A stretch of 22,366 nt of DNA from a virus (IMGVR_UViG_2861079508_000002); one strand, 5' to 3'; numbered from the stretch's first letter, positions 363-21,106 are shown. Translations and numbers: made by a program. The notes: generated by a model not told the origin, from the sequence alone.

Positions 363-650
363 TTACTGTCTCTGGCAATCTTTATCGCGATAACGCCTGA
401 AGTACCCTCTCGCTTCCTCATCCATACCAAGAGCCGAATGAGTCCGCTTAACTGCCTGTCTTAAATCTCCGAATCTGTCTGTAGTTGCTGGTGGGCGTGC
501 CGCCTTACGGATACATTCAGAGCGTCTGTTTGCTGCATGTTCACGTTCTTTATCGCCATCTGCCAGCATCATGACTTCTGCCCATCGTGCGGCAGCTCTC
601 CGGTATAGCCCTTTTGACTCCAGCTCTTCAGCTTTCCTGTCCCTTATCAT
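363..650 (-). CDS. PerC/Pch-family transcriptional activator-like protein (95 aa)
   Basis: ORF-track ORF; SD-like GAGAGG 5 nt upstream of the ATG. N-terminal LESKGLYRRAAARWAEVMM resembles the conserved PerC-family core as recalled from memory, not searched. Confidence 0.45.
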   Translation of the reverse strand: MIRDRKAEELESKGLYRRAAARWAEVMMLADGDKEREHAANRRSECIRKAARPPATTDRFGDLRQAVKRTHSALGMDEEARGYFRRYRDKDCQRQ

Positions 651-5041: not shown

Positions 5042-6655
5042 ATGAGTCAGAAATACCTCATTCGGATCACTGAGCTGGAAAGGTTGCTCTCTGAGCAGGC
5101 TGAAGCCCTCCGTCAGAAAGACCAACAACTGAGTCTGGTTGAAGAGACGGAGGTCTTCCTGCGTTCTGCGCTGGCACGTGCCGAAGAAAAGATCGAAGAA
5201 GATGAGCGGGAAATAGAGCATCTGCGGGCCCAGGTGGAAAAACTGCGCCGGATGCTGTTCGGTACCCGTTCTGAAAAACTGCGTCGTGAAGTTGAACAGG
5301 CTGAAGCCCTGCTGAAACGACGCGAACAGAACAGCGATCGTTACAGCGGGCGTGAGGATGACCCGCAGGTTCCCCGCCAGTTGCGACAGTCGCGTCATCG
5401 TCGCCCGTTACCGGCGCATCTGCCCCGCGAAATAAACCGCCTGGAGCCAGAAGAAAGCTGTTGCCCGGAGTGTGGTGGTGAGCTGGATTATCTGGGGGAA
5501 GTCAGCGCAGAACAACTGGAACTGGTGAGCAGCGCCCTGAAAGTGATCCGCACAGAACGGGTAAAAAAAGCCTGTACAAAATGTGACTGCATCGTTGAAG
5601 CACCGGCACCGTCCCGTCCGATAGCGCGTGGTGTCGCGGGCCCGGGGTTACTTGCCCGCGTGTTAACGGGAAAATACTGCGAACACCTGCCACTGTATCG
5701 TCAGAGTGAAATCTTTGCCCGTCAGGGTGTCGAACTGAGCCGTGCGTTACTCTCCAACTGGGTTGACGCGTGCTGCCAGTTAATGACGCCGCTGAATGAT
5801 GCCCTGTACCGTTACGTGATGAACACCCGCAAGGTTCACACTGATGACACACCAGTAAAAGTGCTGGCACCGGGCAGGAAGAAGGCGAAAACAGGATATA
5901 TCTGGACGTATGTCCGGGATGACAGGAATGCCGGTTCGCCAGAGCCTCCGGCGGTCTGGTTCGCCTACTCACCGGATCATCAGGGGAAACATCCGGAGCA
6001 GCACCTTCGTCCCTTCCGGGGTATCCTGCAGGCAGATGCGTTTAATGGCTACGATCGGCTGTTCAGTGCCGGACGTGAAGGCGGCGCGTTGACGGAAGCA
6101 GGATGCTGGGCTCATGCGCGACGTAAAATCCACGATGTATATATCAGTACCAAAAGCGCGACAGCGGAAGAAGCCCTGAAACTAATCGGTGAACTGTACG
6201 CCATCGAGCACGATATACGCGGGTTACCGGTGTCTGAACGCCTGGCGGTCAGGCAAATGCAGAGTAGACCGCTCCTGACTTCCCTGTATAAGCTGATGCA
6301 GGAGAAAGAACACACGTTATCGAAGAAATGTCGTCTGGGAGATGCGTTCCGGTATATCCGGAAGCACTGGGCTGCGTTGTGCAACTTCTGTGATGATGGC
6401 CTGGCTGAGGTAGATAATAATGCCGCAGAAAGAGCGCTTCGTGCAGTCTGTCTCGGGAAGAAAAATTATGTGTTCTTCGGCAGCGATCACGGTGGCGAGC
6501 GTGGAGCACTGTTGTACGGGCTGATCGGCACCTGCCGACTGAACGGTATAGATCCGGAAGCGTATCTGCGCCATATCCTGGGTGTACTGCCGGAATGGCC
6601 TTCCAACCGTGTTGACGAGCTCCTGCCATGGAACGTAGCACTCACCAATAAATAA
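5042..6655 (+). CDS. tnpC: IS66-family transposase TnpC (Orf3), 537 aa
   Basis: Large third ORF with N-terminal coiled-coil-like region, Cys cluster CPECGG...CTKCDC and a long catalytic domain; ends 30 nt before the right IR. Confidence 0.9.
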   Translation: MSQKYLIRITELERLLSEQAEALRQKDQQLSLVEETEVFLRSALARAEEKIEEDEREIEHLRAQVEKLRRMLFGTRSEKLRREVEQAEALLKRREQNSDRYSGREDDPQVPRQLRQSRHRRPLPAHLPREINRLEPEESCCPECGGELDYLGEVSAEQLELVSSALKVIRTERVKKACTKCDCIVEAPAPSRPIARGVAGPGLLARVLTGKYCEHLPLYRQSEIFARQGVELSRALLSNWVDACCQLMTPLNDALYRYVMNTRKVHTDDTPVKVLAPGRKKAKTGYIWTYVRDDRNAGSPEPPAVWFAYSPDHQGKHPEQHLRPFRGILQADAFNGYDRLFSAGREGGALTEAGCWAHARRKIHDVYISTKSATAEEALKLIGELYAIEHDIRGLPVSERLAVRQMQSRPLLTSLYKLMQEKEHTLSKKCRLGDAFRYIRKHWAALCNFCDDGLAEVDNNAAERALRAVCLGKKNYVFFGSDHGGERGALLYGLIGTCRLNGIDPEAYLRHILGVLPEWPSNRVDELLPWNVALTNK

Positions 6656-6685
6656 GTATCAATACGGCACTCCGTTAACGCTTAC

Positions 6686-6693
6686 GTTCCTTT
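6686..6693. repeat. 8-bp target-site duplication GTTCCTTT, right copy
   Basis: Identical to 4152-4159. Confidence 0.8.
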
Positions 6694-8456
6694 CCATGTA
6701 CGCCTTTAAAGAAAGTTGCTGATTGCTTCCTGTTCCGGTGTAACGCATTAATAAACTTCTCAACACTGATATTTCCAGACGGATCAGTCGCCTTATCTAC
6801 AGCATTCTGAACTATGGCTGCTCGTGCGTTTTGCCTACCATTGTCATCCAGAAGCCTGTAAAGCTGAGAACGTTCTGATGGGCTTTGGCTAAAAACGAGT
6901 TTTGTTACATCCTCAGGCGTGGCCTTGCCGCTGGCTATTGCCTTTTGAACGCGCGTTCTTCCCATCATGTCATTGAATTTAGACCATGAGCGATCAACCC
7001 TTGCCATATTAATGGCTTCGTCTGCTCCAAGATTTTTGGCTACGGCTTTTTTCATATCCGCCGTATATGCCTTATAGATAATATCGCTGGCTTTCTGGAG
7101 CGTATCTTTATCAACAGTGTCAGATGACGCCATAAATCGCTTTCGAAGATCGGTTCTGTTTTCCCTCGCCAGACGCAGGTCATTTGGTCCGCTGGTGATA
7201 TCGTCTTTAAATTGCTGCAAGACTTTTACCGCGGCTCTATCCTGAGATTTACCCGGGCGGCTTAACACGGCAATCTGATTGTCGATAGCTTTTACCGTGT
7301 TTGAGAGATCGACAGGGGTATCCCCCATAGCGTCAATTATGCGGTTATATCGCTTTCCTGCTGCCTCAATGAATTTTTGTTGCCCTTTAGTCGCAGATTC
7401 ATAAAGCTGTTTATCAGAAATGCCACCCAGACCATCGCTAAATGTTCTGACTAAATTTTCTCGTGCTTGTTGTTGATTCAGCCGATTCTTACCGGTTCCA
7501 AAAAAAGGAACTCTTTCGCCTAATGTCTGAGCCTGACTCTGCATAAAGGTTTTATCTTTCAGCATGTCACTGGTCATTAACGGCAGATTTCTTTCCGATG
7601 CAAAGTCGACAGCAGCCTTTGCTTCAGGCGACATATCACCACGAACAGCCCTCGAAACCGCACTCGCTGTATTTTCCAGCCCCTTACCAATACCACCAAT
7701 GCCAGCAGAAATTACCGTTTGTAACGGATCAATATCTTCTCCACCAGCGAGGCTGGTGGCTCCCTGTAGTGCTAAATCTGTAGCTGCTGATTTCCCTATG
7801 GCCCCCAGCACCGTTCCGGCCCTGCCCGCTGGTGTAAACGCCAGCGCATTAGCCAGAAACGATGCCACGTCTTGCGGCGATAAACCCGGCTTGTTCAGAG
7901 CATAATCACCGGATGGCAGGGAAACGATAGTGTTACCCTTCTCATCCTGCCTTAATTTCGCTCCCATGCTCTGAAGAATCTTTTCCTGAGATGCGTCAGA
8001 GCCGAAAAGTTGAGACCATCGAGCTTTTAGAGCATCCATGCTGAGTGAGGTTAACTCTGGGGCAAGGTCGACATTTTGCAGTCTCTCCATCTCTGGAGTC
8101 ATTCGGCTTTCGCCTGTTATAGCATCGCGCATCGCAGCCCCAAGGCTGGCTCCCTGTTCTGCTGAACGCTCAAGCCCCTCTCTTTGCTGAGTAGCTAACT
8201 TTGCATACCCTGACGCAAGAGAATTATCAGATGATGTATGTTGAATATTTTGAGTTGCTGATTGGGATCGGTCTATTTCATTCGTTGATGGTAGTGGATA
8301 GGCAGCATAAAAAGCCTGCTTAGCCTGCTCTACACTTTCTCCGGCTTGCGGGGCCACGACTTCATTGAAGTATTGCTCCTGAGCCTGCGCTTTTTGTTCT
8401 GGTGCTAACGCCTGATACTGTGGAGAGGCGATAACATCTTTCCATGCTTTAGCCAT
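6686..8456 (-). pseudogene. 5' fragment (about 590 codons) of the IS-disrupted gene; large Gln/Ala-rich virion/ejection-like protein (P22 gp16-position)
   Basis: ORF-track ORF 6675..8456; its last 3 codons and stop are IS sequence. Start overlaps the upstream stop as TAATG at 8454-8458. Confidence 0.7.
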
Positions 8457-9877
8457 TAATCACCCCATAGTGAAGAAAAGTTACTGCTGGCTGCTGGCTG
8501 TGATACCTGCTCAGATTGCGGCAATGTCTGCGACGAAGAAGAAGTTCCTCTGTCAACTGCTAAAATAACCCGCAAAGCATCATAAGCTCGACCAGAAGCA
8601 GCTTTCAGCGAATTGAACTGGTTTTCCATCTTCCGGCGCTTGGTATCAATGGTTTTTGTGGAGTCGCCAGGCTGAGGGAAATACATTTGATAATATTTTG
8701 ACATTTCAGCAGGTACGATAGCTGCCCCTGTTTCCTGACGGAGTATTGCCATTATTGCGTCATTAGCATTAACAACGTATTGCTGCTCTGTTGGGCTGAG
8801 CGTTAAGTTAGCCAGCGTCCCATTACCCAAAGCATTATTAATGACCGCCACTCGCTGTGGGCTAAGCTGGTCTTTCAGTGTATCTATTGAATCAAGAGCA
8901 TCCCTAACCCTGTATGCAAATCCAGCAGCTTTTTTAGCCCCTTCTGGCGACTTTTCCATGATCTTTTGGGCTGTTGGCAAAGCTATTGGACGAAATCCAT
9001 CTCCAGATATTGGCTGGTTTAGTTTTCCCTGCTCTTCACTTCCGTCTGTGTAGTATTTTGTGACAGTGCCATCATCGTTTTCTCTAACACTCATTAATTT
9101 TTTGGCGTTTGTATTAATTCCAGCCGCTGCCGCAAATGCCGCCGCCCCCTCTGGATCCGCCTTTAACATTTGAGCGTACTGATTGTAATTCTGCATTGCT
9201 GCTGTTGGTGCATATGCTGACGTTAACGCATTTGCTCGGCTAATATCCTGCCCTCTCGCCTGAAGTGCTTCGCCAGCCTGATTGCTGCGGATTGTCTCTG
9301 CCAACTTGCCACGCTCAATATCCCGACCTTCCATTTGATCTTTGATATCGAAATACTTCTCATGACCGAGAGAAAACAGTGCCATACTACCAGCAAGCCG
9401 CTGGAACCCCTGTGGATCATTAACATGCATTTCGGCAACAGACTCAGGAGAAATTCCCAAGCGACGCATTTCATCTTCGTTATCTGCTATGAATTTTCCA
9501 AATGCCCCAGTTCCGAGCGAAGATGCGATTTGAGCACTAGTCGCAAGATGACCAATAGAATTTCTCTGGTCGTCATCAATAAAGCCCATCCCTTTCTGAA
9601 CGCTTTCAAATTCTTCTGGATACTCAGAAATAAGACTGCGCATTTTGTTTCTGTCTCCAGACTCAAAAGCCCCGGCATATGCTTTCTGAAACTCTGCTTT
9701 ACGCTGTTGTTGACGTGCCTGCTGATTAATCTCAGCAACGCCTCTTAGCCCCTGTAGCGCCATTAAACCTACGTTTGGCTGCTGCTGATACTGCACAGGC
9801 TGAGGAACGGAAGAACGAGGAGCATTATCATTTTGCGGTGCCATGCTAGGCAGCCCGCCAAGTTGCCATGTCGCCAT
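8456..9877 (-). CDS. 473-aa protein, candidate P22 gp20-like ejection protein
   Basis: Translationally coupled at both ends (TAATG). Size matches P22 gp20 (471 aa, from memory); Gln/Ala-rich. No profile search done. Confidence 0.5.
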   Translation of the reverse strand: MATWQLGGLPSMAPQNDNAPRSSVPQPVQYQQQPNVGLMALQGLRGVAEINQQARQQQRKAEFQKAYAGAFESGDRNKMRSLISEYPEEFESVQKGMGFIDDDQRNSIGHLATSAQIASSLGTGAFGKFIADNEDEMRRLGISPESVAEMHVNDPQGFQRLAGSMALFSLGHEKYFDIKDQMEGRDIERGKLAETIRSNQAGEALQARGQDISRANALTSAYAPTAAMQNYNQYAQMLKADPEGAAAFAAAAGINTNAKKLMSVRENDDGTVTKYYTDGSEEQGKLNQPISGDGFRPIALPTAQKIMEKSPEGAKKAAGFAYRVRDALDSIDTLKDQLSPQRVAVINNALGNGTLANLTLSPTEQQYVVNANDAIMAILRQETGAAIVPAEMSKYYQMYFPQPGDSTKTIDTKRRKMENQFNSLKAASGRAYDALRVILAVDRGTSSSSQTLPQSEQVSQPAASSNFSSLWGD

Positions 9878-10554
9878 TAGAATCCAAGCCCCCCAACAAG
9901 ACCAATAAGCCCACCACCAATAGCGCCGGCCGCAGTTCCTATTCCAGGAACAACGGAACCAAGTTGCGCACCCGCTAAAGCGCCTGATGCTGCCCCACCA
10001 ATACCACGCGCAAGACTGGATGGCTGCTGCGCCTGACCTGCACGAATAGCGCCAAGCCCCTGCAAGAGTTGTCCGGTATTATTGGCGTAGTTTTGCCCTG
10101 CCGTTGCCTGCCCTGATGCCGCATTCATCCCGACATTTAGCAGGTTTCCATAATTTTGCATTTGCCCACTAAGCCAATTGTTATAAAGCATGGGCGCAAT
10201 GGAAGATAACTGGTTACTGGTAGCTGTTGAGCCAAGCCCCCCGGTAGCTTCTGCTGAGACAAGGTTCTGATAACGGGCCTGATCTGCCTGTGTTTTATAT
10301 AAACCAGAACCAAAGAAATCATTCGCGGCTTTATTCTGCCCTTCCAGAGTCATCAGTCCTTGTAGTTGTTGTAAAGCAGGCAATCCGACTTCTGCATACG
10401 GCTTGAGATTATTCATCACCGTATTCCACTGCTCGCGCTGCAAATCAATTGCCTGCTGCTGGGCCTTCGCCTGAGCTTTAGAGGCACCACCATCACCGCC
10501 TTTTTCGTATACGGCACGATTGAGATGTTTATGAGCTATATGGGTAATTAACAT
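9877..10554 (-). CDS. 225-aa Gly/Ala/Gln-rich protein with glycine-zipper-like C-terminus, candidate P22 gp7-like ejection protein
   Basis: Start overlaps the upstream stop (ATGTTAA). N-terminal YEKGGDGGASK and C-terminal GIGGAASGALAGAQLGSVVPGIGTAAGAIGGGLIGLVGGLGF; size close to P22 gp7 (229 aa, recalled). Confidence 0.5.
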   Translation of the reverse strand: MLITHIAHKHLNRAVYEKGGDGGASKAQAKAQQQAIDLQREQWNTVMNNLKPYAEVGLPALQQLQGLMTLEGQNKAANDFFGSGLYKTQADQARYQNLVSAEATGGLGSTATSNQLSSIAPMLYNNWLSGQMQNYGNLLNVGMNAASGQATAGQNYANNTGQLLQGLGAIRAGQAQQPSSLARGIGGAASGALAGAQLGSVVPGIGTAAGAIGGGLIGLVGGLGF

Positions 10555-11009
10555 TCGCTGAATTCCTTATATTGTTGCCGAGTTAACTGATAAAGCGTTA
10601 CGCCGACGGGTTTACCACATCTGATATAAGCATCATCAAGGTGACCAACACGGGTAGCGCCAAGCAAACGGATAATTGCCCGTCCGTATTTCGTGGTGTC
10701 AGGAACCATGGTAATGCTGTTAAGGAATGGTGAGTTTTCGAGAAGCCATTTGCAGAATAATCGATGCCCTTGCAGTGCATATTCACCACGGAATCCGGGG
10801 TCGTACACCGCATGGCATTCAACAACGCTATGCCAGAAGTTACGCACTTCATGAACGCCAGCCAGCACCAATCCTTCGTAGATGCCGAGATATACCGCAT
10901 CAGGCTTGATGTAGTACGTGTGCCCCGGCTCAACAATATTTTCGGTATTGGCAGGCTCGTTAAGAAAGGCCTGTAATCGCACCGGGTTATCAATAAATTT
11001 TAGTTCCAT
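10548..11009 (-). CDS. 153-aa protein, first large gene of the operon (P22 gene-14 position)
   Basis: ATG at 11007-11009 with GGATGG about 10 nt upstream; stop overlaps the next start. Assignment by synteny only. Confidence 0.45.
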   Translation of the reverse strand: MELKFIDNPVRLQAFLNEPANTENIVEPGHTYYIKPDAVYLGIYEGLVLAGVHEVRNFWHSVVECHAVYDPGFRGEYALQGHRLFCKWLLENSPFLNSITMVPDTTKYGRAIIRLLGATRVGHLDDAYIRCGKPVGVTLYQLTRQQYKEFSEC

Positions 11010-11026
11010 GCGGTGCCATCCATTTT

Positions 11027-11188
11027 CACATACAGCCTGCCAGCGCCTTATCTATTAACCCTCGTGCAATTTCATGCAGAGTTGGCGCTACTCCAATTCC
11101 TGATTTTTTACGCTGCTCTTCCTGAATTTTCTTTATCGCTTCCATTTGCTTCTCACTTATCAATACCGGCTTTACTGAAATAGCCATA
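11027..11188 (-). CDS. 53-aa small protein, possible RHH/Arc-type regulator (below the ORF-track size cutoff)
   Basis: My own translation MAISVKPVLISEKQMEAIKKIQEEQRKKSGIGVAPTLHEIARGLIDKALAGCM; GGGGG SD 4-5 nt upstream of the ATG; TGA lies 16 nt before the next ATG. Minus-strand TATAAT at 11221-11226. Confidence 0.35.
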
Positions 11189-11280
11189 ACGCCCCCTTAG
11201 AACTGTATAAAACAACAGTTATTATAGTTTCACAAATCGCAATATTCATCATCGTAATTGCAAAATATGAAACAAATAGC

Positions 11281-11315
11281 ACAAAAAAATGCCACCGCTC
11301 AGTAGCTGGTGGCAT
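11281..11315 (-). terminator. Rho-independent terminator (8-bp stem ATGCCACC/GGTGGCAT, 11-nt loop, T6-7 run on the minus strand)
   Basis: Plus strand AAAAAAATGCCACCGCTCAGTAGCTGGTGGCAT; hairpin then T-run when read on the minus strand. Separates the primase island from the ejection-like operon promoter. Confidence 0.55.
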
Positions 11316-11681
11316 CGTTCTGTGTGTCAGGTTTTGACAGGTTTTTTATGGACTCTAAAAACTATATTTATGGTATCGCATTACTCTTCACGGCAGGCGC
11401 TTTTCAGTTCTGCCCTTGCTTCTGGCTCCATTGGTAATTTGATTCGCGATCAGCTATGCGGATGGTTTGCTGAACAGGCATAACAACATCTCAGAGGCTA
11501 TTTTTTGAACTACGAAAATTTCGTAGGTCTCTCCTTCAAAAACGTCACGCCCTTGTACACTGGATTTTACAAAAGTCTCGTAAAACTCTTTCCTGTTCTG
11601 GGCTATGTGCCAAACCGCAGCGAATACCTCCGTCTGCCAGATGAGCAAAACATACCTTATAAAGAAAATCGCTGTTTTTGC

Positions 11682-11786
11682 TGTACCACCTGTACCACCA
11701 TGTCACAAACCCTTGTGTGGCGCGGCCTGTAGGTGGTACAGGTGGGTAAAAATGACCTCTCCCCACCTGTACAGACCTGTACCATT
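11682..11786. repeat. iteron-like cluster B: direct and inverted copies of core GGTGGTACAGGT
   Basis: ACCTGTACCACC at 11688-11699 (partial TGTACCACC at 11682-11690), GGTGGTACAGGT at 11732-11743, partial inverted copies near 11765-11772 and 11776-11785. Immediately after the stop of gene 11790..12527. Confidence 0.6.
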
Positions 11787-11789
11787 TAT

Positions 11790-12527
11790 TTAATTTTTAC
11801 CCATAGCAGCACATAATCCCTTTTTTGAAATATTGAAAAATGCGTTCATTCTTCCCGCTGGCTTAACCTTGTAGCCGCTTGCCACCATCGCCGCAATAAA
11901 TGCTCCGTTGGGGATATAGTGCGGGTGATCACTGTGCTGGTGGTTTATCTGGTTATATCGCTCCACTTCATGCTTCAACGTGTCAGATGTGGGGTTATCC
12001 TGCGGGAAGCTCTCAATCTGGGCATTACTCATCCCGTTGTCTCTGATCCATCTCAGGCAGCTTTTCGCCGATACGATAAATGACGGGTTATCAAGCGGGT
12101 TTTCCCAGTCCGCATTCCGGTTGTGGAGCGCCAGTCCGTCAAGGTTAAATTGTGGGTATTCAGCGGTAATTACTGTCACTGCGTGGCGGATTTCAGTCTC
12201 GTCACAACATGGCTCATCTCCCACACCAGCAGGGTAATAATCTGAACCACCGGGACTGATACAGCGTTTACCACTGAAAGGCCATTGCTTCGCCATTTCG
12301 GGTGTTGAGTGATTACCGTCGCTCCGTTCGCGCTGTGCCTCTGTCCACTGGCTGGCATATTCAGTAAATGAAACCCTTTGCCCCTGGCGCATCCAGTGCG
12401 CAATCATAATTAAAGTGCGTTCCAGACTTTGGATGTCGCCAGCATTCCCGCACTGTGTAGCGAAACTTTTTAATTCTTCGCGCTCCGTTCTGGTCATTCC
12501 CTGCGGTATGCAATAGTTATTGTTCAT
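11790..12527 (-). CDS. 245-aa hypothetical protein (Cys/His-containing)
   Basis: ORF-track ORF; ATGA overlap with the upstream 78-aa gene; bracketed by iteron clusters. No recognisable motif by eye. Confidence 0.55.
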   Translation of the reverse strand: MNNNYCIPQGMTRTEREELKSFATQCGNAGDIQSLERTLIMIAHWMRQGQRVSFTEYASQWTEAQRERSDGNHSTPEMAKQWPFSGKRCISPGGSDYYPAGVGDEPCCDETEIRHAVTVITAEYPQFNLDGLALHNRNADWENPLDNPSFIVSAKSCLRWIRDNGMSNAQIESFPQDNPTSDTLKHEVERYNQINHQHSDHPHYIPNGAFIAAMVASGYKVKPAGRMNAFFNISKKGLCAAMGKN

Positions 12528-12760
12528 GTTTTACCTCTCTGTTTTACCTCTCTGATTTCTGCTGCCATATCTGTTGGCTCTATACAGCCGTCCCGACTTG
12601 CCACGCAGGGAATAATGATTTCAACGGTATCGCCGTCAATACACATTTCAACATTCGCCCATGCCGCAATGGGTAGCCAGTCTGAACGCCCCTCAAACCG
12701 TAGCTGCCAGCCAGAGGAAGAAGCTAACTGGCGCACTTTGTAAAATGGTGTGCTCATCAT
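12524..12760 (-). CDS. 78-aa hypothetical protein
   Basis: ATG-ATG start at 12755-12760; coupled to the 245-aa gene. The intergenic region upstream holds iteron cluster A. Confidence 0.5.
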   Translation of the reverse strand: MMSTPFYKVRQLASSSGWQLRFEGRSDWLPIAAWANVEMCIDGDTVEIIIPCVASRDGCIEPTDMAAEIREVKQRGKT

Positions 12761-12801
12761 TGGTTGTTCCCTCTCAGCCAGCCAGAAGAAATGCGTTTGT
12801 T

Positions 12802-12907
12802 AATGGTATAGGTGGTACAGGTCTGGTATAGGTAAGATATTGACCTGTACCACTATAACGCACTGTTTTTAATACTGAATTAGCAAAATGGTATAGGTGG
12901 TACAGGT
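12802..12907. repeat. iteron-like cluster A: exact 21-mer AATGGTATAGGTGGTACAGGT twice plus an inverted copy between
   Basis: 21-mer at 12802-12822 and 12887-12907; partial copy 12825-12834; inverted ACCTGTACCACTATA at 12843-12857. Between the primase stop (12937) and gene start (12760). Confidence 0.65.
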
Positions 12908-12936
12908 AAAAACGTTCTTCTTGTAAAAAGACTATA

Positions 12937-15291
12937 TTAAAAAACATCATAACCCCCCATACCGATCAGACGTGCAAACGCAGCCTGTAGAACTCCGACC
13001 TCTGGTAGTTCGTAGAACACGCCATTCCCACGGTCTGGTCTTCCATGCTTCACCAGTCCCATTTGTGCAAGTGATTTACCCAGTAGTGATCTGGCTGCTG
13101 GTTCTTTAAGCTTTTCCCCACGCTCAAGCGACCACGCTACAAATCGACTAACCATATCCTTTGCAAACAAACGGACTTCGCCATTAAACGGAGGTTCATT
13201 GATTAGCTCGCCATAAAGAAACAATTCAACGCCAGACAGCCCCAGCAAGATTTCTTCACGTAAGGCATCGGTCTGTGGCGCTCGTTGAGGGTCAAAACCT
13301 GAGAGATCCACCCCTTTAAGATGCCAAAGCAACTTTGCGGCACCGCCATCATTAAGCCAACTGTACAGCCGATCAAAATACTCCCGGCTCTGTGCTTTTT
13401 CAGGAGATGGCTCAAGCACGAGATAGCGGCGCTCTCTTATCCCTGCCTGTAATACCTGTGTGCTGTTACTGGCAAATATCAACCGGGCAAAATTCGGCAT
13501 TGGTTCAGCATCAATTCCCTTGCGCTCAAGGTTAAACGTCGGTTCGCTAATAATCGCTTTAAGTCTGTCAGCTTCAGACGGCTTGTGGATCGTCACTTCG
13601 TCAGCAAATACCAGTAGCTTGTTAGCAAGTATTGAATTGAAGCGCCCTGAAATATGTCCCGCCCCGTTAATGTGGGCGGCGTACTGCCCCAGTATTTGCA
13701 GCAGCGGTTTAACCGTTGTGCCTTTCCCTGTGCCCGGGACAGATTTCATCACGATTGCCACGGACGGTTTTTCATCAGGCTTTTGGATAATGTGCGCCAT
13801 CCACTGGATAAGATATTGGTATGCCTCTTCATTACCGGCACAGACAACCTGCAACAGGTGATTAAGGTATACCGTGCAATCTCCTTCAATTGGTTCCAGT
13901 GCCAGCCCCTCATACAGATTAAAAACATCGTCAGGGCATTTGTCTGGTACTGGATAAAATCCTACGCCTCCTGGCTTGTAGTTCTTCCCACTCCATGACA
14001 GCCACGCCGATCCCGCCAGCTTTCTGGCGACTCTCGGTTTATGATGAAAATAATGCTGAAATTGTGATAAATCCTCGAAAACGTGCGATACACCGCCGGT
14101 TTGAGAAGGCTTTAGCGACACCACCTTGTGTTTCCCGCCGATGGTGACATGCGTAAACGTCCGGTTGATTTCTTCGAGGACAGCAATTTCATCATCGCTT
14201 AACACCTCGCCAGAACTGATCTCATTCAGCGCCCCGACTGACTGTTTGTGATTTTTCACCTGCGCCCCTTTCCCCCGTGGCTGGTACATCGAATCTTTAA
14301 ATGCTGCTGTGGCTGCCGCCAGCCCGTGTTGTTGGTGATAGTCGTTCCAGTCGGCTTTATAGTCAGTCGGTGGCAGAGACACCCAGCCAGCTACGGAAAT
14401 AGCGGCCCTCTCTGCGGCATCTTTCCCCGTGTTGATCCCTCCACTTTCGGAGTTTCCTTGCTGGTGATCGTTATCTGCGGCAATGATGATTTGTGCCTGT
14501 GGATATGTTCTGCGCATGACTTCCGCTACTGGCAACAGGTTGCCAGCGTCGATTGCTGCCACTGTCATTGCGTCAGGGCGAATTAAATGGCACGACAGGG
14601 CGGTAGCCACCCCCTCAGCAATTATGATGCTGTGAGGTCGTTTCTGTGCGTTTATGGCGTGATATGCCCCCCGCTTTGCTGAACCTGTCAGGAGTCTTTT
14701 TTCACCATGTGAGGTAATTGTCTGTGCTGCTGTGACTGCGCCGGATTTATCCACCAGCGCCAGCAACAGAGATCCATCGGGCAACACGGGGAATGTAAAA
14801 TCACCTACCCCTTTCGCAACCAGATAATCAGATTTGCCGTTTACAGCCTTTCTGCGCATGTCATCAAACTGACGGGAAAACGTATCCCGTCTTTGTTGTT
14901 CGTCCTTCTCTGCCCTTTTCAGGCGCTCCTGTTCGCGTCGCTGGCGCTCGGTTTCCAGTTGTTCCCGTTTCTGGCTGGTGGCTTCTGGTGTTTCCGTTGT
15001 CCGGTAATCAATACCCAGAACATCAGCGGCAAGCAGCGCCGCCTCTGTTGTGTCGCAGTTATTTACGCGTTTAATTAAATCCAGCCCATCACCAGCGCCG
15101 CACTGATTACAGATGAAGCTACCGCGCCCGTTGTCATCGAACCGGAATCGATCTTTGCCCCCACATGCAGGGCAGGGAGCATGACGGCGCGGAGAGTCAG
15201 GGACATTTATGTTCAGGCAGCCCAGCACATGAGGCCAGTTGTTTTCAGACGCACTGATAACCTGACGGATAAGATCAATGTTTCGCATCAC
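12937..15291 (-). CDS. P4 alpha-type primase-helicase (784 aa)
   Basis: N-terminal Zn-ribbon CPACGGKDRFRFDD...CNQCGAGDG; central toprim-like region; C-terminal Walker A VPGTGKGTT. Architecture typical of P4 alpha / PICI Pri-Rep proteins. GTG start at 15291, ATG one codon later. Confidence 0.9.
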   Translation of the reverse strand: MMRNIDLIRQVISASENNWPHVLGCLNINVPDSPRRHAPCPACGGKDRFRFDDNGRGSFICNQCGAGDGLDLIKRVNNCDTTEAALLAADVLGIDYRTTETPEATSQKREQLETERQRREQERLKRAEKDEQQRRDTFSRQFDDMRRKAVNGKSDYLVAKGVGDFTFPVLPDGSLLLALVDKSGAVTAAQTITSHGEKRLLTGSAKRGAYHAINAQKRPHSIIIAEGVATALSCHLIRPDAMTVAAIDAGNLLPVAEVMRRTYPQAQIIIAADNDHQQGNSESGGINTGKDAAERAAISVAGWVSLPPTDYKADWNDYHQQHGLAAATAAFKDSMYQPRGKGAQVKNHKQSVGALNEISSGEVLSDDEIAVLEEINRTFTHVTIGGKHKVVSLKPSQTGGVSHVFEDLSQFQHYFHHKPRVARKLAGSAWLSWSGKNYKPGGVGFYPVPDKCPDDVFNLYEGLALEPIEGDCTVYLNHLLQVVCAGNEEAYQYLIQWMAHIIQKPDEKPSVAIVMKSVPGTGKGTTVKPLLQILGQYAAHINGAGHISGRFNSILANKLLVFADEVTIHKPSEADRLKAIISEPTFNLERKGIDAEPMPNFARLIFASNSTQVLQAGIRERRYLVLEPSPEKAQSREYFDRLYSWLNDGGAAKLLWHLKGVDLSGFDPQRAPQTDALREEILLGLSGVELFLYGELINEPPFNGEVRLFAKDMVSRFVAWSLERGEKLKEPAARSLLGKSLAQMGLVKHGRPDRGNGVFYELPEVGVLQAAFARLIGMGGYDVF

Positions 15292-15646
15292 CGTACCCCA
15301 CGTGGTCTATAGCGTTTGCGATATGGCTAACCAGCATCTGCCACTTGGTTATTCCGTAATCAGTCAGCATGCCATCATTGTTTAGCCACATATCAAATTC
15401 AGCGGTTGTCGCAAGTTTCCACTTATCGCCGTGGACAGTCCTCATTGCTGGGTACATGAATGCGCAAATCAGATCACAAACATCTGACGGCTTCAGAGAT
15501 GTAGTAATGGTGCGTCCCTCTGGCGTCTGAATTGCCATTTTCTCTTCACCAGTAGAATGAAGGTTATGAATCCACACAGCACCAGCAATCTTTGCCACCT
15601 GCTCTCCGATTGCGGAGCTAAGCGCCATTTCTGCATTTTCACGCAT
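15275..15646 (-). CDS. 123-aa hypothetical protein
   Basis: ATG with GGGAGG upstream; overlaps the primase start by 17 nt. Confidence 0.5.
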   Translation of the reverse strand: MRENAEMALSSAIGEQVAKIAGAVWIHNLHSTGEEKMAIQTPEGRTITTSLKPSDVCDLICAFMYPAMRTVHGDKWKLATTAEFDMWLNNDGMLTDYGITKWQMLVSHIANAIDHVGYGDAKH

Positions 15647-15980
15647 GAGAACCTCCCGCTACAGTTGCGCCCATGTCATTAACCATGCTTTGCCATATCT
15701 CACGCCCGACGTCAGTCAATCCGTCCTTAGTGACGCAACGCTCAATAAGCTCGATCCCCACGGTTTCCCACTGCGGGTAGAACACTTTCATGGCTGCCAG
15801 TGTGTAGCTATCGATCAGGCTGCGAACGCCTTTTACTCCATTGACGATTTCCACACGTACGGCCTCGCCGTCCGCATCAACCATGAAATAGTCCCCTCCG
15901 CTGGTGGAGGTAATGTGGTTATACAGTGCCGACGCATACTTATTTGCCAGCGCATTCAGTCGGAAATTTTTAGTAATCAT
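15639..15980 (-). CDS. 113-aa hypothetical protein
   Basis: ATG at 15978-15980 with GAGGA 7 nt upstream; stop overlaps the next gene start. Confidence 0.5.
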   Translation of the reverse strand: MITKNFRLNALANKYASALYNHITSTSGGDYFMVDADGEAVRVEIVNGVKGVRSLIDSYTLAAMKVFYPQWETVGIELIERCVTKDGLTDVGREIWQSMVNDMGATVAGGSHA

Positions 15981-15990
15981 GGTTCCATCC

Positions 15991-16593
15991 TCAGTGCGTC
16001 ACTGGTTCCGATGGCATGCCGTTTTCATTCAGTTCAGCTATAAAGCTGTTGTGAAGTTCAGCAAGCGTTTCACGACCAAATGGAGTCAGTGCTCCTTGTT
16101 CCACATCCATCATGGCTCTGTAGAAAATGATGGAGCGTTCTGTGCCAGACTCGATGCCAAAACGTTCTATCATCGCGCCCTCAATGTTGTTTGCCATAGC
16201 GAGGCGCTCTGCTACTGGATACAGCGGCATGGCAACGATGCCGTTGGAATAAACAGCCACTTCGGAAGGATTGCCAGTATCATCAATGATGCTGACAGTG
16301 CCGTTTTCCTCTCTCATTTCCAGCATGAATACTGTTGCGATCAGCCATCTCCACATAATGACGTTATGCTGTGATGTGTAATCGAAATATCCCTGGTTGC
16401 CGCCATCGGCTATAGCGAGATGTATTGACATACCTTCATCTGGTTTATCGTCATAATCCCCGGCATCCAGACGATTTACGGCATCAATATATGAGACGGC
16501 CTCAACGCGTTCTGTCATGCCATCGTTGCTGCGGCACATGATGTTTACGCCGTCAGGCGTTGCTTCTGCATGGAAAGTTAAGAAATTATTCAT
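15991..16593 (-). CDS. 200-aa hypothetical protein (preferred ATG at 16593; ORF track extends to 16698)
   Basis: The ATG at 16591-16593 forms an ATGAATAA overlap with the stop of the upstream ORF; the longer track version would overlap that ORF by about 110 nt. Confidence 0.5.
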   Translation of the reverse strand: MNNFLTFHAEATPDGVNIMCRSNDGMTERVEAVSYIDAVNRLDAGDYDDKPDEGMSIHLAIADGGNQGYFDYTSQHNVIMWRWLIATVFMLEMREENGTVSIIDDTGNPSEVAVYSNGIVAMPLYPVAERLAMANNIEGAMIERFGIESGTERSIIFYRAMMDVEQGALTPFGRETLAELHNSFIAELNENGMPSEPVTH

Positions 16594-16807
16594 GTTTCGC
16601 CTCGCCTGAATGATTCTGTAACTCATATTTGCCCAACAATTCGTCCGCTTCCTGAATAGCTTCTGGTACGCCATTGAGCAGTGACATAACCGCGCCAATC
16701 ATTAACTTGTCTCTGTTGCTTGGGCTGGCCCCTTCAAGCCAGAACCCTAAAACAGTCTGAACCTGTTCAATGCGACATTGCGCTTCAATGAGCTGGATGT
16801 TGGTCAT
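16586..16807 (-). CDS. 73-aa hypothetical protein
   Basis: ORF-track ORF, coupled to neighbours by overlapping stop/start. Confidence 0.45.
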   Translation of the reverse strand: MTNIQLIEAQCRIEQVQTVLGFWLEGASPSNRDKLMIGAVMSLLNGVPEAIQEADELLGKYELQNHSGEAKHE

Positions 16808-17067
16808 TTCGCACTCTCCACATCGATTAAACTGATATCTATCAGGGAGGTAACTTTTTGTAGCCAGCTATTGATTACTGTCGCCTGTTCCCCTCCCACC
16901 GAGGGAATAATCTCATTCATCACATGAACCAGACCTGTGCGCGCTCTGGTAAGCCGTTCAGTCGCGCAATCTGCGGGAGTGAATGTGTCTGGATATGGCT
17001 CTTCGCGCCCCAGCAATGATTCAATTTCCAGCTCACACGGATGACGATAAATTAAGTTGATATTCAT
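16804..17067 (-). CDS. 87-aa hypothetical protein
   Basis: ORF-track ORF, ATGA-type overlaps at both ends. Confidence 0.45.
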   Translation of the reverse strand: MNINLIYRHPCELEIESLLGREEPYPDTFTPADCATERLTRARTGLVHVMNEIIPSVGGEQATVINSWLQKVTSLIDISLIDVESAK

Positions 17068-17258
17068 TTTTCACCACCAAGAATTACCAGCTCTGCACGG
17101 GCATCGTTAACCAAAGATGAGCACGCTTTAATCGCATCCACGACATCAGCAGCGTCCATTTCTTCAGCCGAAAGACTGACAGCAACCAGGACAGCCGCTG
17201 CTTGCTCGATTAATTGAAGTGCGGACGTAAGGCGAGGGGTATTAATTGAGTTATTCAT
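17064..17258 (-). CDS. 64-aa hypothetical protein (preferred ATG at 17258; track start 17315 is GTG)
   Basis: ATG at 17256-17258 has GGGGG about 7 nt upstream and forms an ATGAATAA overlap with the upstream stop. Confidence 0.45.
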   Translation of the reverse strand: MNNSINTPRLTSALQLIEQAAAVLVAVSLSAEEMDAADVVDAIKACSSLVNDARAELVILGGEK

Positions 17259-17469
17259 TGGTTGCCCCCGTTTTGCATGGCATTTGTCCACCTTCCAGCA
17301 GGAAATGAACGTCACGAACGGCGAGATCCAATATCGCGAGTAACGCCTTCAGTTTTTCGTCTCGTGAGGGAGAGTTGCTCACCAGAATGTCATTAATCAC
17401 TTCTGTCAGTGTGATGATCTGGCTTGTGCGTTCGAGGGGATCCATATGCACATCGTAGGTTTTAATCAT
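17251..17469 (-). CDS. 72-aa hypothetical protein; may be an independent gene or the C-terminus of the long ORF from 18282
   Basis: ATG at 17467-17469 with strong GGAGGTG SD; balanced helical-looking composition (MIKTYDVHMDPLERTSQIITLTEVINDILV...). In frame with ORF 17251..18282. Confidence 0.5.
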   Translation of the reverse strand: MIKTYDVHMDPLERTSQIITLTEVINDILVSNSPSRDEKLKALLAILDLAVRDVHFLLEGGQMPCKTGATNE

Positions 17470-17656
17470 GTGCCACCTCCATGCGGATACGACCAGCAAA
17501 AAAGCAGACGTGATCGCGCACCAGAGAACGGCGAGCATCGCGTTCAGACTCGGCAGCAATATGATGAATTTTGGCGGTAATTGTCGGGCAATCGCGGCGA
17601 ACTGCGGCGATAATCCAGATAAATTGCGGTTTTTGGGTAGGGGTAGTAGCCAGCAT
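17462..17656 (-). CDS. 64-aa hypothetical protein, overlaps the long ORF in another frame
   Basis: GGAGG 7 nt upstream of the ATG at 17654-17656; stop overlaps the ATG of the 72-aa gene. Conflicts with the long-ORF model. Confidence 0.4.
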   Translation of the reverse strand: MLATTPTQKPQFIWIIAAVRRDCPTITAKIHHIAAESERDARRSLVRDHVCFFAGRIRMEVAHD

Positions 17657-18282
17657 GTGGCATCCTCCGATAACGTTGGCTTGTTATAACCACCGCAGAA
17701 GAGACCAATCTTGCTGGCGGTGGACTGTACGGAGTTGGCCTTACTGGCGTTATCGGAAACCAGCCTACCCGAAGGTAGCCCCATACAGCCCACCATTGAT
17801 AAGGTGTGCGTGTGCGCCGATACAAAAAAAGACGCTGGCGCGTCATGTATCGCCGATAACTCCAGCAGGAGGCCAATCCCGGCACCCGTTTTATGAGGTG
17901 CCTTATAACCATAAACCGTGTTGCCGCATAACGGCAAGCTCTTTTTTATGGACTCCGAAAACTCACTATTGGAAGAACCAGAAGCACAGTACATCGCGCT
18001 CATTTCGTTAACGTCACGCGCATGGACGAAGGTTTTTGTGGAGTCACTACGCGAGAAGAGAAAGCCATCTACGACCAGAAATTCTCTGGCGCAGCCGCTG
18101 ACCTTCTCAACGCTAACACCATCGACCGTAATTTCTGACATGGTTAAGGCATCCGCTCCTACCACCAGCAAATGACAAACTTTGCTTGTATCTGCTGTAT
18201 TAATGCCTGACTTTGCTGTCATATTGCTGGATTTTGGCGACATACCAGCCAGTGAAAATATCTTCTTCTGGACGGTTAGCAT
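17470..18282 (-). other. ambiguous stretch: upstream part of ORF 17251..18282 (strong GGAGG SD at 18282), no in-frame stop, contains terminator-like hairpins
   Basis: Start at 18280-18282 overlaps the upstream stop by 7 nt. Minus-strand hairpin GACGC-GCCA-GCGTC plus T7 at 17824-17844; plus-strand hairpin TTGCCG-CATAA-CGGCAA plus T6 at 17921-17947. Several frames open on both strands. Confidence 0.3.
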
Positions 18283-18458
18283 TTGTTAACCTCCGCGAAC
18301 TCCTTCATGAAACGTGCCAGCGGTTGTACGCATGGCGATTGATACCCGTCGCGATAAAACGTCACTCGGTTGTGAGACACGCTTTCGACAGTAACGAGTG
18401 CTCCGTGGGCATCTTTGTAGCGTTTTTGAGGTTGTGGTGTTCCTGTCGGCTTAAACAT
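18276..18458 (-). CDS. 60-aa hypothetical protein (ATG at 18458; track start 18545 overlaps the upstream gene)
   Basis: ATG at 18456-18458 with GGAGG upstream, 5 nt after the stop of the antirepressor-like gene. Confidence 0.5.
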   Translation of the reverse strand: MFKPTGTPQPQKRYKDAHGALVTVESVSHNRVTFYRDGYQSPCVQPLARFMKEFAEVNKC

Positions 18459-19284
18459 GGACCGCCTCCAGACGCTTAGCGAGCCAGCGTTGCGACAGGC
18501 GGGTGAGTTCTCCTTTGCGCTGCTCATATTCCATGCCCATATCAATTAACGTGATATTGGTGCTTTCGAGATATGAGAGGTGCTCAAGCTGTTCTGCGTT
18601 CATATGGTCGCGAGGTTCGCCAGAATAGCCATTTATCCGCGCCCACTGCTTAGCAGTTAGCCCACCAAGAACGATACGAGAAATCATATTGCTCTCGTTT
18701 GTGTAGTGGTGTTGCTGCGTCATTTTCCCCATCTCGGCACGGGCCATATTCAGCGCATCGCACATTGGCTTAAAGTTGTTTGCGGCACTAATACGGGCTT
18801 TTAGCTGGCGACGATAGCGGGCGGCGATTTCAGGCACGGTACGCTGTAATTCTTCCTCGCACTGGATGAAATAACGGCGGATAGCGCGACCCTGATCATT
18901 GCGTTCGATCATTGCCAGTTCTTTCGCCATTCCGACACTTAACAGATAGTCTTTGCCGGGTCTGCCAGAGTGCTTAATCTTGCTGTAAGCCGCGCCATTC
19001 GGGCTTTTCCCCAAATTTGGGGAAATAGTTTTATGGACTGAGTAATCGTGCCCAATGGTGAAGTCATATTCAGAGATGCGATCAGTGATCCATGTAGAGA
19101 AGTCTTTTCCCACGCCCAACGCTTTGTGTAACGCTTTTGCGCTAACAATATTGGTTTCACGCCCACCGATATGACCAGGAATAACCGGGACAATTGCGGC
19201 AAATTCATTACCGTTAATTGTGCCCTGATAGGCGTTCAGATGAGGGGCGGCCTCAGAAATTAATCTGCTTTTTTCGATGTTCAT
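18451..19284 (-). CDS. phage antirepressor-like protein (Bro-N/AntA-like N-terminal region), 277 aa
   Basis: GGAGA SD 8 nt upstream of the ATG. Segment GKDYLLSVGMAKELAMIERNDQGRAIRRYFIQCEEEL resembles the conserved core of Bro-N/antirepressor domains (by eye). Confidence 0.5.
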   Translation of the reverse strand: MNIEKSRLISEAAPHLNAYQGTINGNEFAAIVPVIPGHIGGRETNIVSAKALHKALGVGKDFSTWITDRISEYDFTIGHDYSVHKTISPNLGKSPNGAAYSKIKHSGRPGKDYLLSVGMAKELAMIERNDQGRAIRRYFIQCEEELQRTVPEIAARYRRQLKARISAANNFKPMCDALNMARAEMGKMTQQHHYTNESNMISRIVLGGLTAKQWARINGYSGEPRDHMNAEQLEHLSYLESTNITLIDMGMEYEQRKGELTRLSQRWLAKRLEAVHV

Positions 19285-19296
19285 TTTCAGTCTCCG

Positions 19297-19728
19297 TTAG
19301 GCGGCGGTGAGATTGTCCGGGTATAGATTGAGAATGTCGGCAATTTCCTGCTGAGAAAGTCCGTTGTGATCATTTATGTTCGCAAGATGGTTAACATGAG
19401 TGATCACTTTCAGAACATCACCACGGCAGGAGAAACGGTAGCGAAGGTGTGTTCCGATACCATCAGGATTCTTTTCGTCGATACGCTCCAGAGTGATTCC
19501 AAGCTGGCGTTCTAACTCTGTTGCATAGTTACGACCAGAAGACAGACGGCAGTAGCGAAGAATGTCATTTTCTGTCCATCCCTCTATACCAGTACGCAGC
19601 ATATAGACTCTGGCACGATGCTTTTTCGGTGTGCGCTTTGGTGCTTGAAGGGATTTTGTCAGGGGCGTAACATCAGATACGCGAATATCTGAATTAGCCG
19701 CCTGTAATGGGCGGTTTTTCTTTTCCAT
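19297..19728 (-). CDS. 143-aa hypothetical protein, possibly DNA-binding
   Basis: ATG overlaps the alpA-like stop (ATGA); AAGGTGG SD. Basic N-terminus. Confidence 0.5.
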   Translation of the reverse strand: MEKKNRPLQAANSDIRVSDVTPLTKSLQAPKRTPKKHRARVYMLRTGIEGWTENDILRYCRLSSGRNYATELERQLGITLERIDEKNPDGIGTHLRYRFSCRGDVLKVITHVNHLANINDHNGLSQQEIADILNLYPDNLTAA

Positions 19729-19931
19729 CAGGCCACCTTCCCGCGGCGTTCTGCCAGCCAGTTGTGAATCTCAACCGCATCAAACGCAGTTATTTTTTCT
19801 CCCAGCTTTACCGGACGTGGTAGTGAACCGTTTCTTACTTTACGGTCGATGGTGGATACACTAACGCCCAGCAATTCAGCCAGGCGGAAGCGTCTGATAT
19901 AGCCTTTTGTAGGAATAGTGTCGGTGTTCAT
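19728..19931 (-). CDS. alpA: AlpA/Vis-family HTH regulator (excisionase-like), 67 aa
   Basis: Short protein with RFRLAELLGVSVSTIDRKVRNGSLPRPVKLGEKITAFDAVEIHNWL, matching the AlpA-type motif; canonical position near a P4-type integrase. Confidence 0.7.
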   Translation of the reverse strand: MNTDTIPTKGYIRRFRLAELLGVSVSTIDRKVRNGSLPRPVKLGEKITAFDAVEIHNWLAERRGKVA

Positions 19932-21011: not shown

Positions 21012-21106
21012 TGCGTCACCTTTTACGCTGCGCCTTATTTTGTGATTGAGCCAGGCGGTAAGGCTTCCCGCTTTTCGCCCCGTCGAGCTAGGCTCAATCT
21101 ATTCAG

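Follow-up and report, generated by a model that had tools for sequence, protein, structure and literature searches.

The closest described relatives of the locus considered here are the origins of the phage satellite P4 and of phage-inducible chromosomal islands (PICIs). The locus itself is a pair of repeat clusters, called A and B, in IMGVR_UViG_2861079508_000002, a stretch of viral DNA of 22,366 nucleotides that was analyzed as a whole (the window) and that is an integrated phage satellite of E. coli, an EcCIMP1-like PICI. In P4, the fused primase-helicase alpha binds repeated octamers through its C-terminal winged helix. In Staphylococcus aureus, the origins of the pathogenicity islands (SaPIs) reportedly lie 3′ of rep, with two iteron sets around an AT-rich region and a specificity matched to the Rep allele, as Ubeda et al. 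are said to have described in 2007 and 2012; these are said to differ from the present case in their Gram-positive lineage, iterons of 6–8 bp, unrelated Rep and lack of genes inside the origin. For Gram-negative PICIs, the defining organization is an origin 3′ of pri-rep in which two iteron sets flank an AT-rich region (PMC6092414), and Fillol-Salom et al. (2018; PMC6092414) showed that EcCICFT073's pri-rep-ori segment drives plasmid replication. EcCIMP1 is a PICI found in E. coli MP1; the P22-like phage Kapi1 excises and transfers it, and the paper that reports this gives no description of its origin (PMC11773190).

Compared to these systems, the two clusters of the window very probably represent the two iteron arrays of an origin at which an EcCIMP1-like PICI with a DUF5906-type Rep cassette initiates replication. 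It is a known kind of origin in a new example, with an unusual split layout: the arrays stand ~1 kb apart because two genes, encoding proteins of 78 and 245 amino acids (aa), lie between them. The iteron, ACCTRTACC, was not found described in the literature searched, where queries with the iteron strings returned nothing relevant.

Arrangement of the two arrays

The genes of this region all lie on the minus strand, in the order primase-helicase, a gap of 176 nt, the 78-aa open reading frame (ORF) and the 245-aa ORF, followed by ~600 nt without annotated genes. The features are as follows.

12937 to 15291, minus strand: Pri-Rep initiator of 784 aa, with a zinc-ribbon and Toprim primase (aa 1 to ~340), a DUF5906/NrS-1-like superfamily 3 (SF3) helicase and a C-terminal domain
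12940 to 13434, minus strand: C-terminal 165 aa of the initiator, a predicted winged helix and candidate iteron reader
12805 to 12907: cluster B as a whole, its first iteron 29 nt past the stop codon of the primase-helicase
12889 to 12907, minus strand: proximal pair of cluster B, direct iterons ACCTGTACC ACCTATACC, 9 nt apart
12855 to 12888, unstranded: AT-rich spacer of cluster B, 34 nt with 26% GC, a candidate DNA-unwinding element
12843 to 12851, plus strand: single inverted iteron of cluster B, reading ACCTGTACC on the plus strand and GGTACAGGT on the coding (minus) strand
12805 to 12833, minus strand: distal triple of cluster B, direct iterons with spacings of 11 and 9 nt
12524 to 12760, minus strand: 78-aa orphan gene, between the two iteron arrays
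11790 to 12527, minus strand: 245-aa orphan gene, whose predicted protein model has a possible winged-helix-like C-terminal part
11679 to 11783, unstranded: cluster A, the second array, starting 6 nt past the stop codon of the 245-aa gene

The repeat unit is the 9-mer GGTAYAGGT on the plus strand, equivalent to ACCTRTACC on the coding strand, and its period is usually 9 nt. The window of 22 kb holds nine exact copies, all nine of them within clusters B and A. Shuffled sequences hold 0.11 on average and 2 at most, and none of 100 shuffles attained nine; for the 12-mer with up to two mismatches, there are nine matches against 0.98 expected from shuffles. The shuffles thus rule out a chance origin of the repeats. 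Read on the coding strand, cluster A begins with two inverted iterons (10 apart) and one direct iteron with a degenerate neighbor; next come a GC-rich spacer that includes CCGCGCC, an inverted pair with a spacing of 9 nt and, lastly, a run of A. Arrays B and A are separated by 1021 nt.

A preliminary description of this DNA had reported an exact 21-mer (AATGGTATAGGTGGTACAGGT) at 12802–12822 and 12887–12907 with an inverted copy between them, and a second cluster of related repeats, and had noted that the clusters flank the 78-aa and 245-aa ORFs downstream of the primase-helicase. All of this is borne out: the inverted copy lies at 12843–12854, the second cluster includes exact 12-mers at 11688–11699 (minus strand) and 11732–11743 (plus strand) and copies with two mismatches at 11679–11690 and 11775–11786, and the ORF coordinates confirm the flanking arrangement directly downstream of the 784-aa primase-helicase. 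A further direct copy at 12824–12833 can be added to that description.

The geometry of the arrays can be compared directly with that of other origins. In the following lines, iteron offsets are given in bp from the first iteron, with > for direct and < for inverted sites.

Window: first array >0 >9 <56 >74 >85 >94; second array <1124 <1134 >1164 <1211
P4 ori: first array >0 >10 <53 >75 >86 >96; second array not applicable
EcCICFT073: first array >0 >9 <58 >77 >88 >97; second array <131 <142 .. <210 <219
Kluyvera: first array >0 >9 <57 >75 >86 >95; second array <120 <129 >145 <206
Yersinia: first array >0 >9 <57 >75 >84; second array <110 <119 >135 >149 <195 <204

The spacing of the first array of the window lies within 3 bp of that of both P4 ori and the EcCICFT073 origin. 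Once an insertion of ~1004 bp is subtracted, the second array follows the order and orientation of EcCICFT073, and the window without these ~1004 bp reproduces the Kluyvera origin; the window therefore corresponds to a canonical origin plus ~1004 bp. Kluyvera, Yersinia, Methylomonas and EcCICFT073 have both arrays in one contiguous stretch, with a gap of 16–30 nt in the relatives. The spacer equivalent to 12855–12888 has diverged in sequence, yet it is AT-rich in all relatives.

Compared to EcCICFT073, the present locus shares an origin directly 3′ of pri-rep, an AT-rich region between two iteron sets, and the order, orientation and spacing of the sites, including an inverted array that ends in an inverted pair and a spacer that contains CCGCGCC. 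The island context is also alike (integrase, int-alpA RNA, Icd-like, DUF4222 and PerC genes, unidirectional transcription). The two differ in the iteron, which is CTRTCTACC in EcCICFT073; in the initiator, as the EcCICFT073 Rep shows no BLASTP similarity to the Toprim-DUF5906 Rep of the window (E = 1.1); and in the distance between the arrays, which is ~30 nt there and 1021 nt with two genes here. Furthermore, the origin of the window is a predicted one.

Compared to P4, the locus again combines likeness with difference. Both have a fused primase-helicase initiator with homologous primase domains (33% identity) and two iteron arrays with gene-carrying DNA between them. Cluster B has the composition of P4 ori, namely, two direct sites, an AT-rich spacer, one inverted site and three direct sites, and cluster A resembles one unit of crr (< > > gap < <, then a run of A). 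However, the type I octamer iteron of P4 is TGTTCACC, and the helicase and C-terminal half of its initiator belongs to a different family. In the P4 record, crr follows alpha directly and ori lies 4.7 kb away across the alpha operon, whereas cluster B occupies the position of crr yet has the geometry of ori, with the second array 1 kb downstream. The element would work like P4 but belongs with the PICIs and is not a member of the P4 family. The suggestion that the clusters are a pair of replication sites like ori and crr, read by the primase-helicase, is supported by position, layout, conservation, co-inheritance and a predicted winged helix as far as replication sites are concerned. It does not hold for an independently evolved pair, since the arrays correspond to one canonical PICI origin that is contiguous in relatives and was parted by gene insertion.

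A motif of another kind, (A)AGCCGCGCCA(TT)NCTGG, often capable of forming a hairpin, lies at ~11716–11727, about 30 nt ahead of the last inverted pair of the second array. It was also seen at loci L002 (7609), L037 (6969), L043 (4873, 5117 and 5206), L051 (4218), L015 (6664) and L013 (7869) and in EcCICFT073 (L049; 12190 and 12329). Since it is conserved among islands with unrelated iterons and Reps (E. coli, Kluyvera, Methylomonas and EcCICFT073), the motif is not tied to a particular Rep; it may serve as a site for a host factor or as a priming signal.

Co-inheritance of iterons and initiator

The initiator had been described as a primase-helicase of the P4 alpha type. This designation is apt for the N-terminal primase part, which is 33% identical to P4 alpha over aa 8–338 only (BLASTP), but not for the helicase half, which cannot be aligned with alpha and is DUF5906/NrS-1-like. 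The Pfam matches are Zn_Ribbon_Prim, Toprim_3 and DUF5906, aa 476–655 match the NrS-1 primase-helicase in the PDB (6k9c), and the P4-family model TIGR01613 (primase_Cterm) reaches 20.4 bits, below its cut-off of 108.7. The predicted winged helix of the C-terminal domain is the fold of the origin-binding domain of P4 alpha, for which a structure has been solved (PDB 1ka8).

A primase-based scan, with one genome per species, returned 27 loci. GGTAYAGGT occurs in two of these, which are the only two that share the C-terminal half of the initiator: Buttiauxella, with a Rep of 64% identity over its full length, and Pantoea, with 76% identity over aa 308–784. The remaining loci (~25; L004–L028) share only aa 1–341 and are without GGTAYAGGT; nearly all of these primase-only loci have an iteron set of their own ~25 nt past their own stop codon (GAACCAAC, GAGACAAC, ACGGGTTA, TCCCTACC, CGGTCACA, TTATCCCA and AATTCGCA). 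A second search, using the C-terminal half of the initiator as a protein query followed by contig look-ups, revealed this iteron following the helicase gene in a further nine genera (Raoultella, Enterobacter, Salmonella, Xenorhabdus, Arsenophonus, Yersinia, Kluyvera, Enterovibrio and Methylomonas), with identity as low as 50%. The preliminary description had looked to islands with the same primase for recurrence of the repeats; they are present at 11 of the 13 loci that share the helicase half, down to ~50% identity, and two Shewanella loci sharing this half (L044 and L052) have no recognizable array.

Both arrays are kept in Buttiauxella (Rep 64%) and Raoultella, and cluster B is kept also in Pantoea, Enterobacter, Salmonella, Xenorhabdus, Yersinia, Kluyvera and Methylomonas. 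As in the window, the first iteron immediately follows the Rep stop codon in all relatives, and multiple alignments show conserved iterons and diverged spacers. Within E. coli, the cassette occurs in 129 of 5426 complete genomes; the 22 positions at which their common allele differs all lie outside the exact iterons. The Yersinia, Kluyvera and Methylomonas loci (L042, L043 and L051) show the same iterons in the same layout, and neither the 78-aa nor the 245-aa protein has a homolog there. Those of Yersinia and Kluyvera encode AlpA, a helicase-only DUF5906 Rep, an HK97 capsid protein and an S78 protease, with a portal protein in Kluyvera, and look like capsid-forming PICIs. Because both genes are missing from these three loci, the DUF5906 helicase with its C-terminal domain is the only constant companion of the iteron. 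From this, and from the manner in which P4 alpha binds its octamers, we infer that the C-terminal domain of Rep reads ACCTRTACC.

Comparison with EcCIMP1 provided evidence of a different type. The two islands are of the same type and have PerC, the regulatory genes and the P22-like genes for ejection proteins in common. In blastn alignments with EcCIMP1 (L045) and locus L004, the window is 94–98% identical at 9717–11592 and 14267–19738, and homology is lost exactly over the interval between the two.

11593 to 14266, minus strand: replication-specificity cassette of 2.7 kb, comprising the helicase and C-terminal half of the initiator, cluster B, both enclosed genes, cluster A and 86 bp

The counterpart interval of EcCIMP1 holds a DUF927-type helicase half and 189 bp with six TGAACCAAC iterons. 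Unlike the window, EcCIMP1 thus has a Toprim-DUF927 Rep and TGAACCAAC iterons, and lacks the 78-aa and 245-aa genes. The clusters travel with the part of the initiator that differs, as expected of a unit of Rep-origin specificity. In the DUF927 class itself, users of GAACCAAC and of GAGACAAC are 90–100% identical through the helicase and differ mainly in the last ~110 aa, where a short basic segment changes with the type of iteron (YQRKS-PRI vs YQGRV--RE); this suggests that iteron specificity in the DUF927 class maps to the C-terminus of Rep.

These observations are consistent with the following mechanism. First, the C-terminal winged-helix domain of Rep would read the 9-bp site ACCTRTACC. 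Second, Rep would occupy the six sites of cluster B, a number that would suit a hexameric SF3 helicase, melt the AT-rich spacer and load itself as a helicase-primase. Third, cluster A would be the second array of the same origin, displaced by the ~1-kb insertion that carries the two genes; it may be needed, and the two arrays presumably cooperate by Rep-mediated looping, by analogy with P4 ori and crr.

Several points weigh against an origin of this kind. The support for this particular element is comparative throughout, and its split origin could be impaired. Covariation of Rep and iteron was not obtained within the DUF5906 class, since the iteron core CTGTACC stays conserved even where Rep identity falls to 50%, and was seen only between Rep classes. 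Furthermore, the relatives in Pantoea and Salmonella keep only cluster B, while Arsenophonus (L041 5354–5457) and Enterovibrio (L050 4255–4370) have only an array of the A type after the helicase gene; neither array is therefore universally required, and either can persist alone. Finally, the leader of the 78-aa gene contains cluster B, which may have a second, regulatory role.

Fragments ~77% identical to cluster A were also found on large conjugative plasmids, namely, the Salmonella IncFIB plasmid NZ_CP092862 (L046 5001–5129), where the fragment adjoins an IS3-family element, and plasmids of Klebsiella variicola, where the 3′ portion of the 245-aa gene is also present. These fragments have the appearance of satellite debris.

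The enclosed genes and other roles for the repeats

The ratio of nonsynonymous to synonymous substitution (dN/dS) against relatives is 0.09–0.26 for the 78-aa gene and 0.08–0.16 for the 245-aa gene, and these low values indicate that both ORFs are real genes. The 78-aa protein has no significant match in Pfam, PHROG, NCBIfam, PADLOC or PDB sequences, and the 245-aa protein has none in Pfam, NCBIfam, PADLOC or PDB sequences and a single weak one in PHROGs (E 7e-4). An exhaustive HMMER search of 1.8 billion proteins found 12 representatives of the 78-aa family; the 245-aa family comprises 29 clusters, from Enterobacterales wherever the source organism is named. Homologs of the 78-aa protein come after cluster B at six loci (L002, L003 and L037–L040), and in Xenorhabdus the order is cluster B, 78-aa homolog, cluster A, 245-aa homolog. 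The predicted model of the 245-aa protein gives weak matches to DNA-binding winged helices. A paralogous relationship with the C-terminal domain of Rep was considered and rejected, as hhalign gave a probability of 0.1%. That the two proteins control replication as P4 Cnr does is a speculation by analogy.

At the junction of the two genes, a tandem duplication of 13 bp (TGTTTTACCTCTC twice) occupies 12527–12552. Its presence alters both the C-terminal end of the small protein, which has 78 aa instead of 76, and the overlap with the next gene. The window sequence with the duplication is found exactly in five genomes; the duplication is absent from one aligned genome with the common allele (MS 21-1), and matches of 98% identity are uniformly 13 bp shorter.

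The preliminary description had offered, as an alternative, that the repeats are operators for helper-dependent control of the enclosed genes. In this case, the 245-aa protein, the 78-aa protein or a factor of the helper phage would bind them to control the two-gene module. Cluster B does lie within the 176-nt leader of the 78-aa gene, a TATAGT hexamer resembling a –10 element abuts the inverted iteron, the 245-aa model has the weak winged-helix matches just mentioned, and genes and repeats co-occur in six genera. However, a consensus scan from the Rep stop codon to the start of the 78-aa gene found no promoter and no terminator, and the hexamer is not conserved in relatives. The full two-array layout exists without either gene in Yersinia, Kluyvera and Methylomonas and, with its own iteron, in EcCICFT073, where the same layout is a validated origin (PMC6092414); in addition, the 245-aa homolog of Xenorhabdus lies outside the pair of arrays. 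The iterons persist unchanged in relatives devoid of the genes; service as operators is thus not their primary function, and control of the module as their main role is highly improbable. Secondarily, Rep may influence how the 78-aa and 245-aa genes are expressed.

According to another alternative, the clusters are relics of an origin that was inactivated by the gene insertion, and the island does not replicate from them or relies on replication by its helper or host. The canonical contiguous origin is indeed interrupted by ~1 kb, one array has been lost in some relatives, and an orphan array at 687–807 of the window (described below) shows that arrays can outlast the replacement of their Rep. 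Nevertheless, E. coli, Raoultella and Buttiauxella all keep the exact iterons and their spacing in the split state despite divergence of the flanking spacers, the Rep gene is intact, and the enclosed genes are under purifying selection; moreover, in P4, arrays bound by Rep are known to function kilobases apart. There is thus only a slim chance that the origin is defunct. A small mobile two-gene cassette, with the clusters' outer arms as its terminal inverted repeats or as sites of recombination, can be dismissed, in spite of the 23-nt inverted repeat formed by the outermost arms (87% complementary, 1191 nt apart) and the variable presence of the two genes among relatives, because family-library scans found no transposase or recombinase domain in either enclosed protein and the exchange boundaries with EcCIMP1 lie inside the Rep gene (14266) and 86 bp beyond cluster A (11593) rather than at the repeats. 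In addition, the inverted symmetry is already present in contiguous origins free of the insert, the plasmid-borne fragments of cluster A beside IS3 look like debris, and no 78-aa/245-aa pair with the same terminal repeats and target-site duplications was found at unrelated loci.

A further idea builds on the origin itself and assigns a function to its split layout. The two orphan genes might have been domesticated within the origin, such that Rep bound to arrays B and A loops out and controls the 78-aa/245-aa module, and the 245-aa protein, through its part resembling a winged helix, might feed back on the binding of Rep to the iterons as a copy-number or incompatibility factor, again by analogy with P4 Cnr. 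Although this is rather unlikely, the result would, if true, be an "origin with cargo" that regulates itself and is conserved in six or more enterobacterial genera.

The island and the significance of its probable origin

The assignment of the window to an EcCIMP1-like PICI of E. coli rests on several lines of evidence. First, the window is 100% identical, over the 1.6 kb tested, to a locus of E. coli G749 that sits between the yicC side and the yicG/ligB side; the integration site of EcCIMP1, by comparison, is a tRNA-Thr gene beside proA. Second, the G749 locus encodes a tyrosine integrase, an antirepressor, Ash, an Icd-like protein, the primase, P22-type ejection proteins and a PerC regulator. 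Third, annotation and synteny show the context of a PICI, namely, an integrase, alpA-type regulation, unidirectional genes, PerC and no full phage. Between ~3110 and 9717, the window has no blastn similarity to EcCIMP1.

Genes of the P22 virion and ejection type lie at ~5800–11009 on the minus strand, as in EcCIMP1, and fit a P22-like helper. They include a DUF2824/gp14-like gene (10548–11009), gp7 (9877–10554), a gp20-like gene and a gene for a large protein with a lytic-transglycosylase domain. No sid, delta or psu genes were seen in the window. Three RNAs on the minus strand exceed the Rfam gathering score: C4 antisense RNA (17713–17800), isrK (17825–17901) and int-alpA RNA (21032–21098). 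They are regulators typical of P4-like and PICI-like islands and lie upstream of the Icd-like/Ash region and beside the integrase. Targeting of the conserved interval 11300–11700 by the C4 antisense RNA was rejected, as the duplex energy is no better than that of shuffles. At 11501–11539, 39 nt with the palindrome CTACGAAAATTTCGTAG are 95% identical to the ant1 region/leader of P1-like phages (RCS47 and phi456). This stretch pairs with the C4 RNA of the island no better than shuffled controls do; it belongs to the intergenic part common to EcCIMP1, and besides it a phage database gave no match to the repeat region.

The window also contains an origin-like array of another type. At 687–807, just upstream of the PerC gene (363–650, minus strand), six exact TGAACCAAC iterons are arranged as three tandem copies with a 9-nt period, an AT-rich spacer, and three copies in the opposite orientation 21 nt apart. 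Because TGAACCAAC belongs to the DUF927-type Rep of EcCIMP1 and not to the Rep of this island, the array is an orphan here. EcCIMP1 itself has two TGAACCAAC arrays, ~83% identical, inverted and 8.5 kb apart (L045 18393–18506 and 9853–9966), one after the primase and one upstream of PerC, an arrangement reminiscent of P4 ori and crr. The array at 687–807 may have been left behind by the cassette swap, or it may be targeted by the Rep of another satellite in the same cell; in the latter case, there is a rather remote possibility that a co-resident satellite of the EcCIMP1 type replicates the island in trans.

If the two clusters are the origin of this island, as is very probable, the origin and the likely determinant of Rep specificity are pinned down for a widespread type of satellite, in which the whole specificity unit, that is, the helicase half of the initiator together with its iterons, is replaced as a single cassette. 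The two conserved orphan genes embedded in the origin are candidates for replication control. Collectively, one layout of sites is common to satellites with unrelated initiator helicases and iterons, including P4, EcCICFT073 and the DUF5906-type islands from E. coli to Methylomonas, and this shared layout provides a practical rule for finding origins and for predicting replicon compatibility among satellites.

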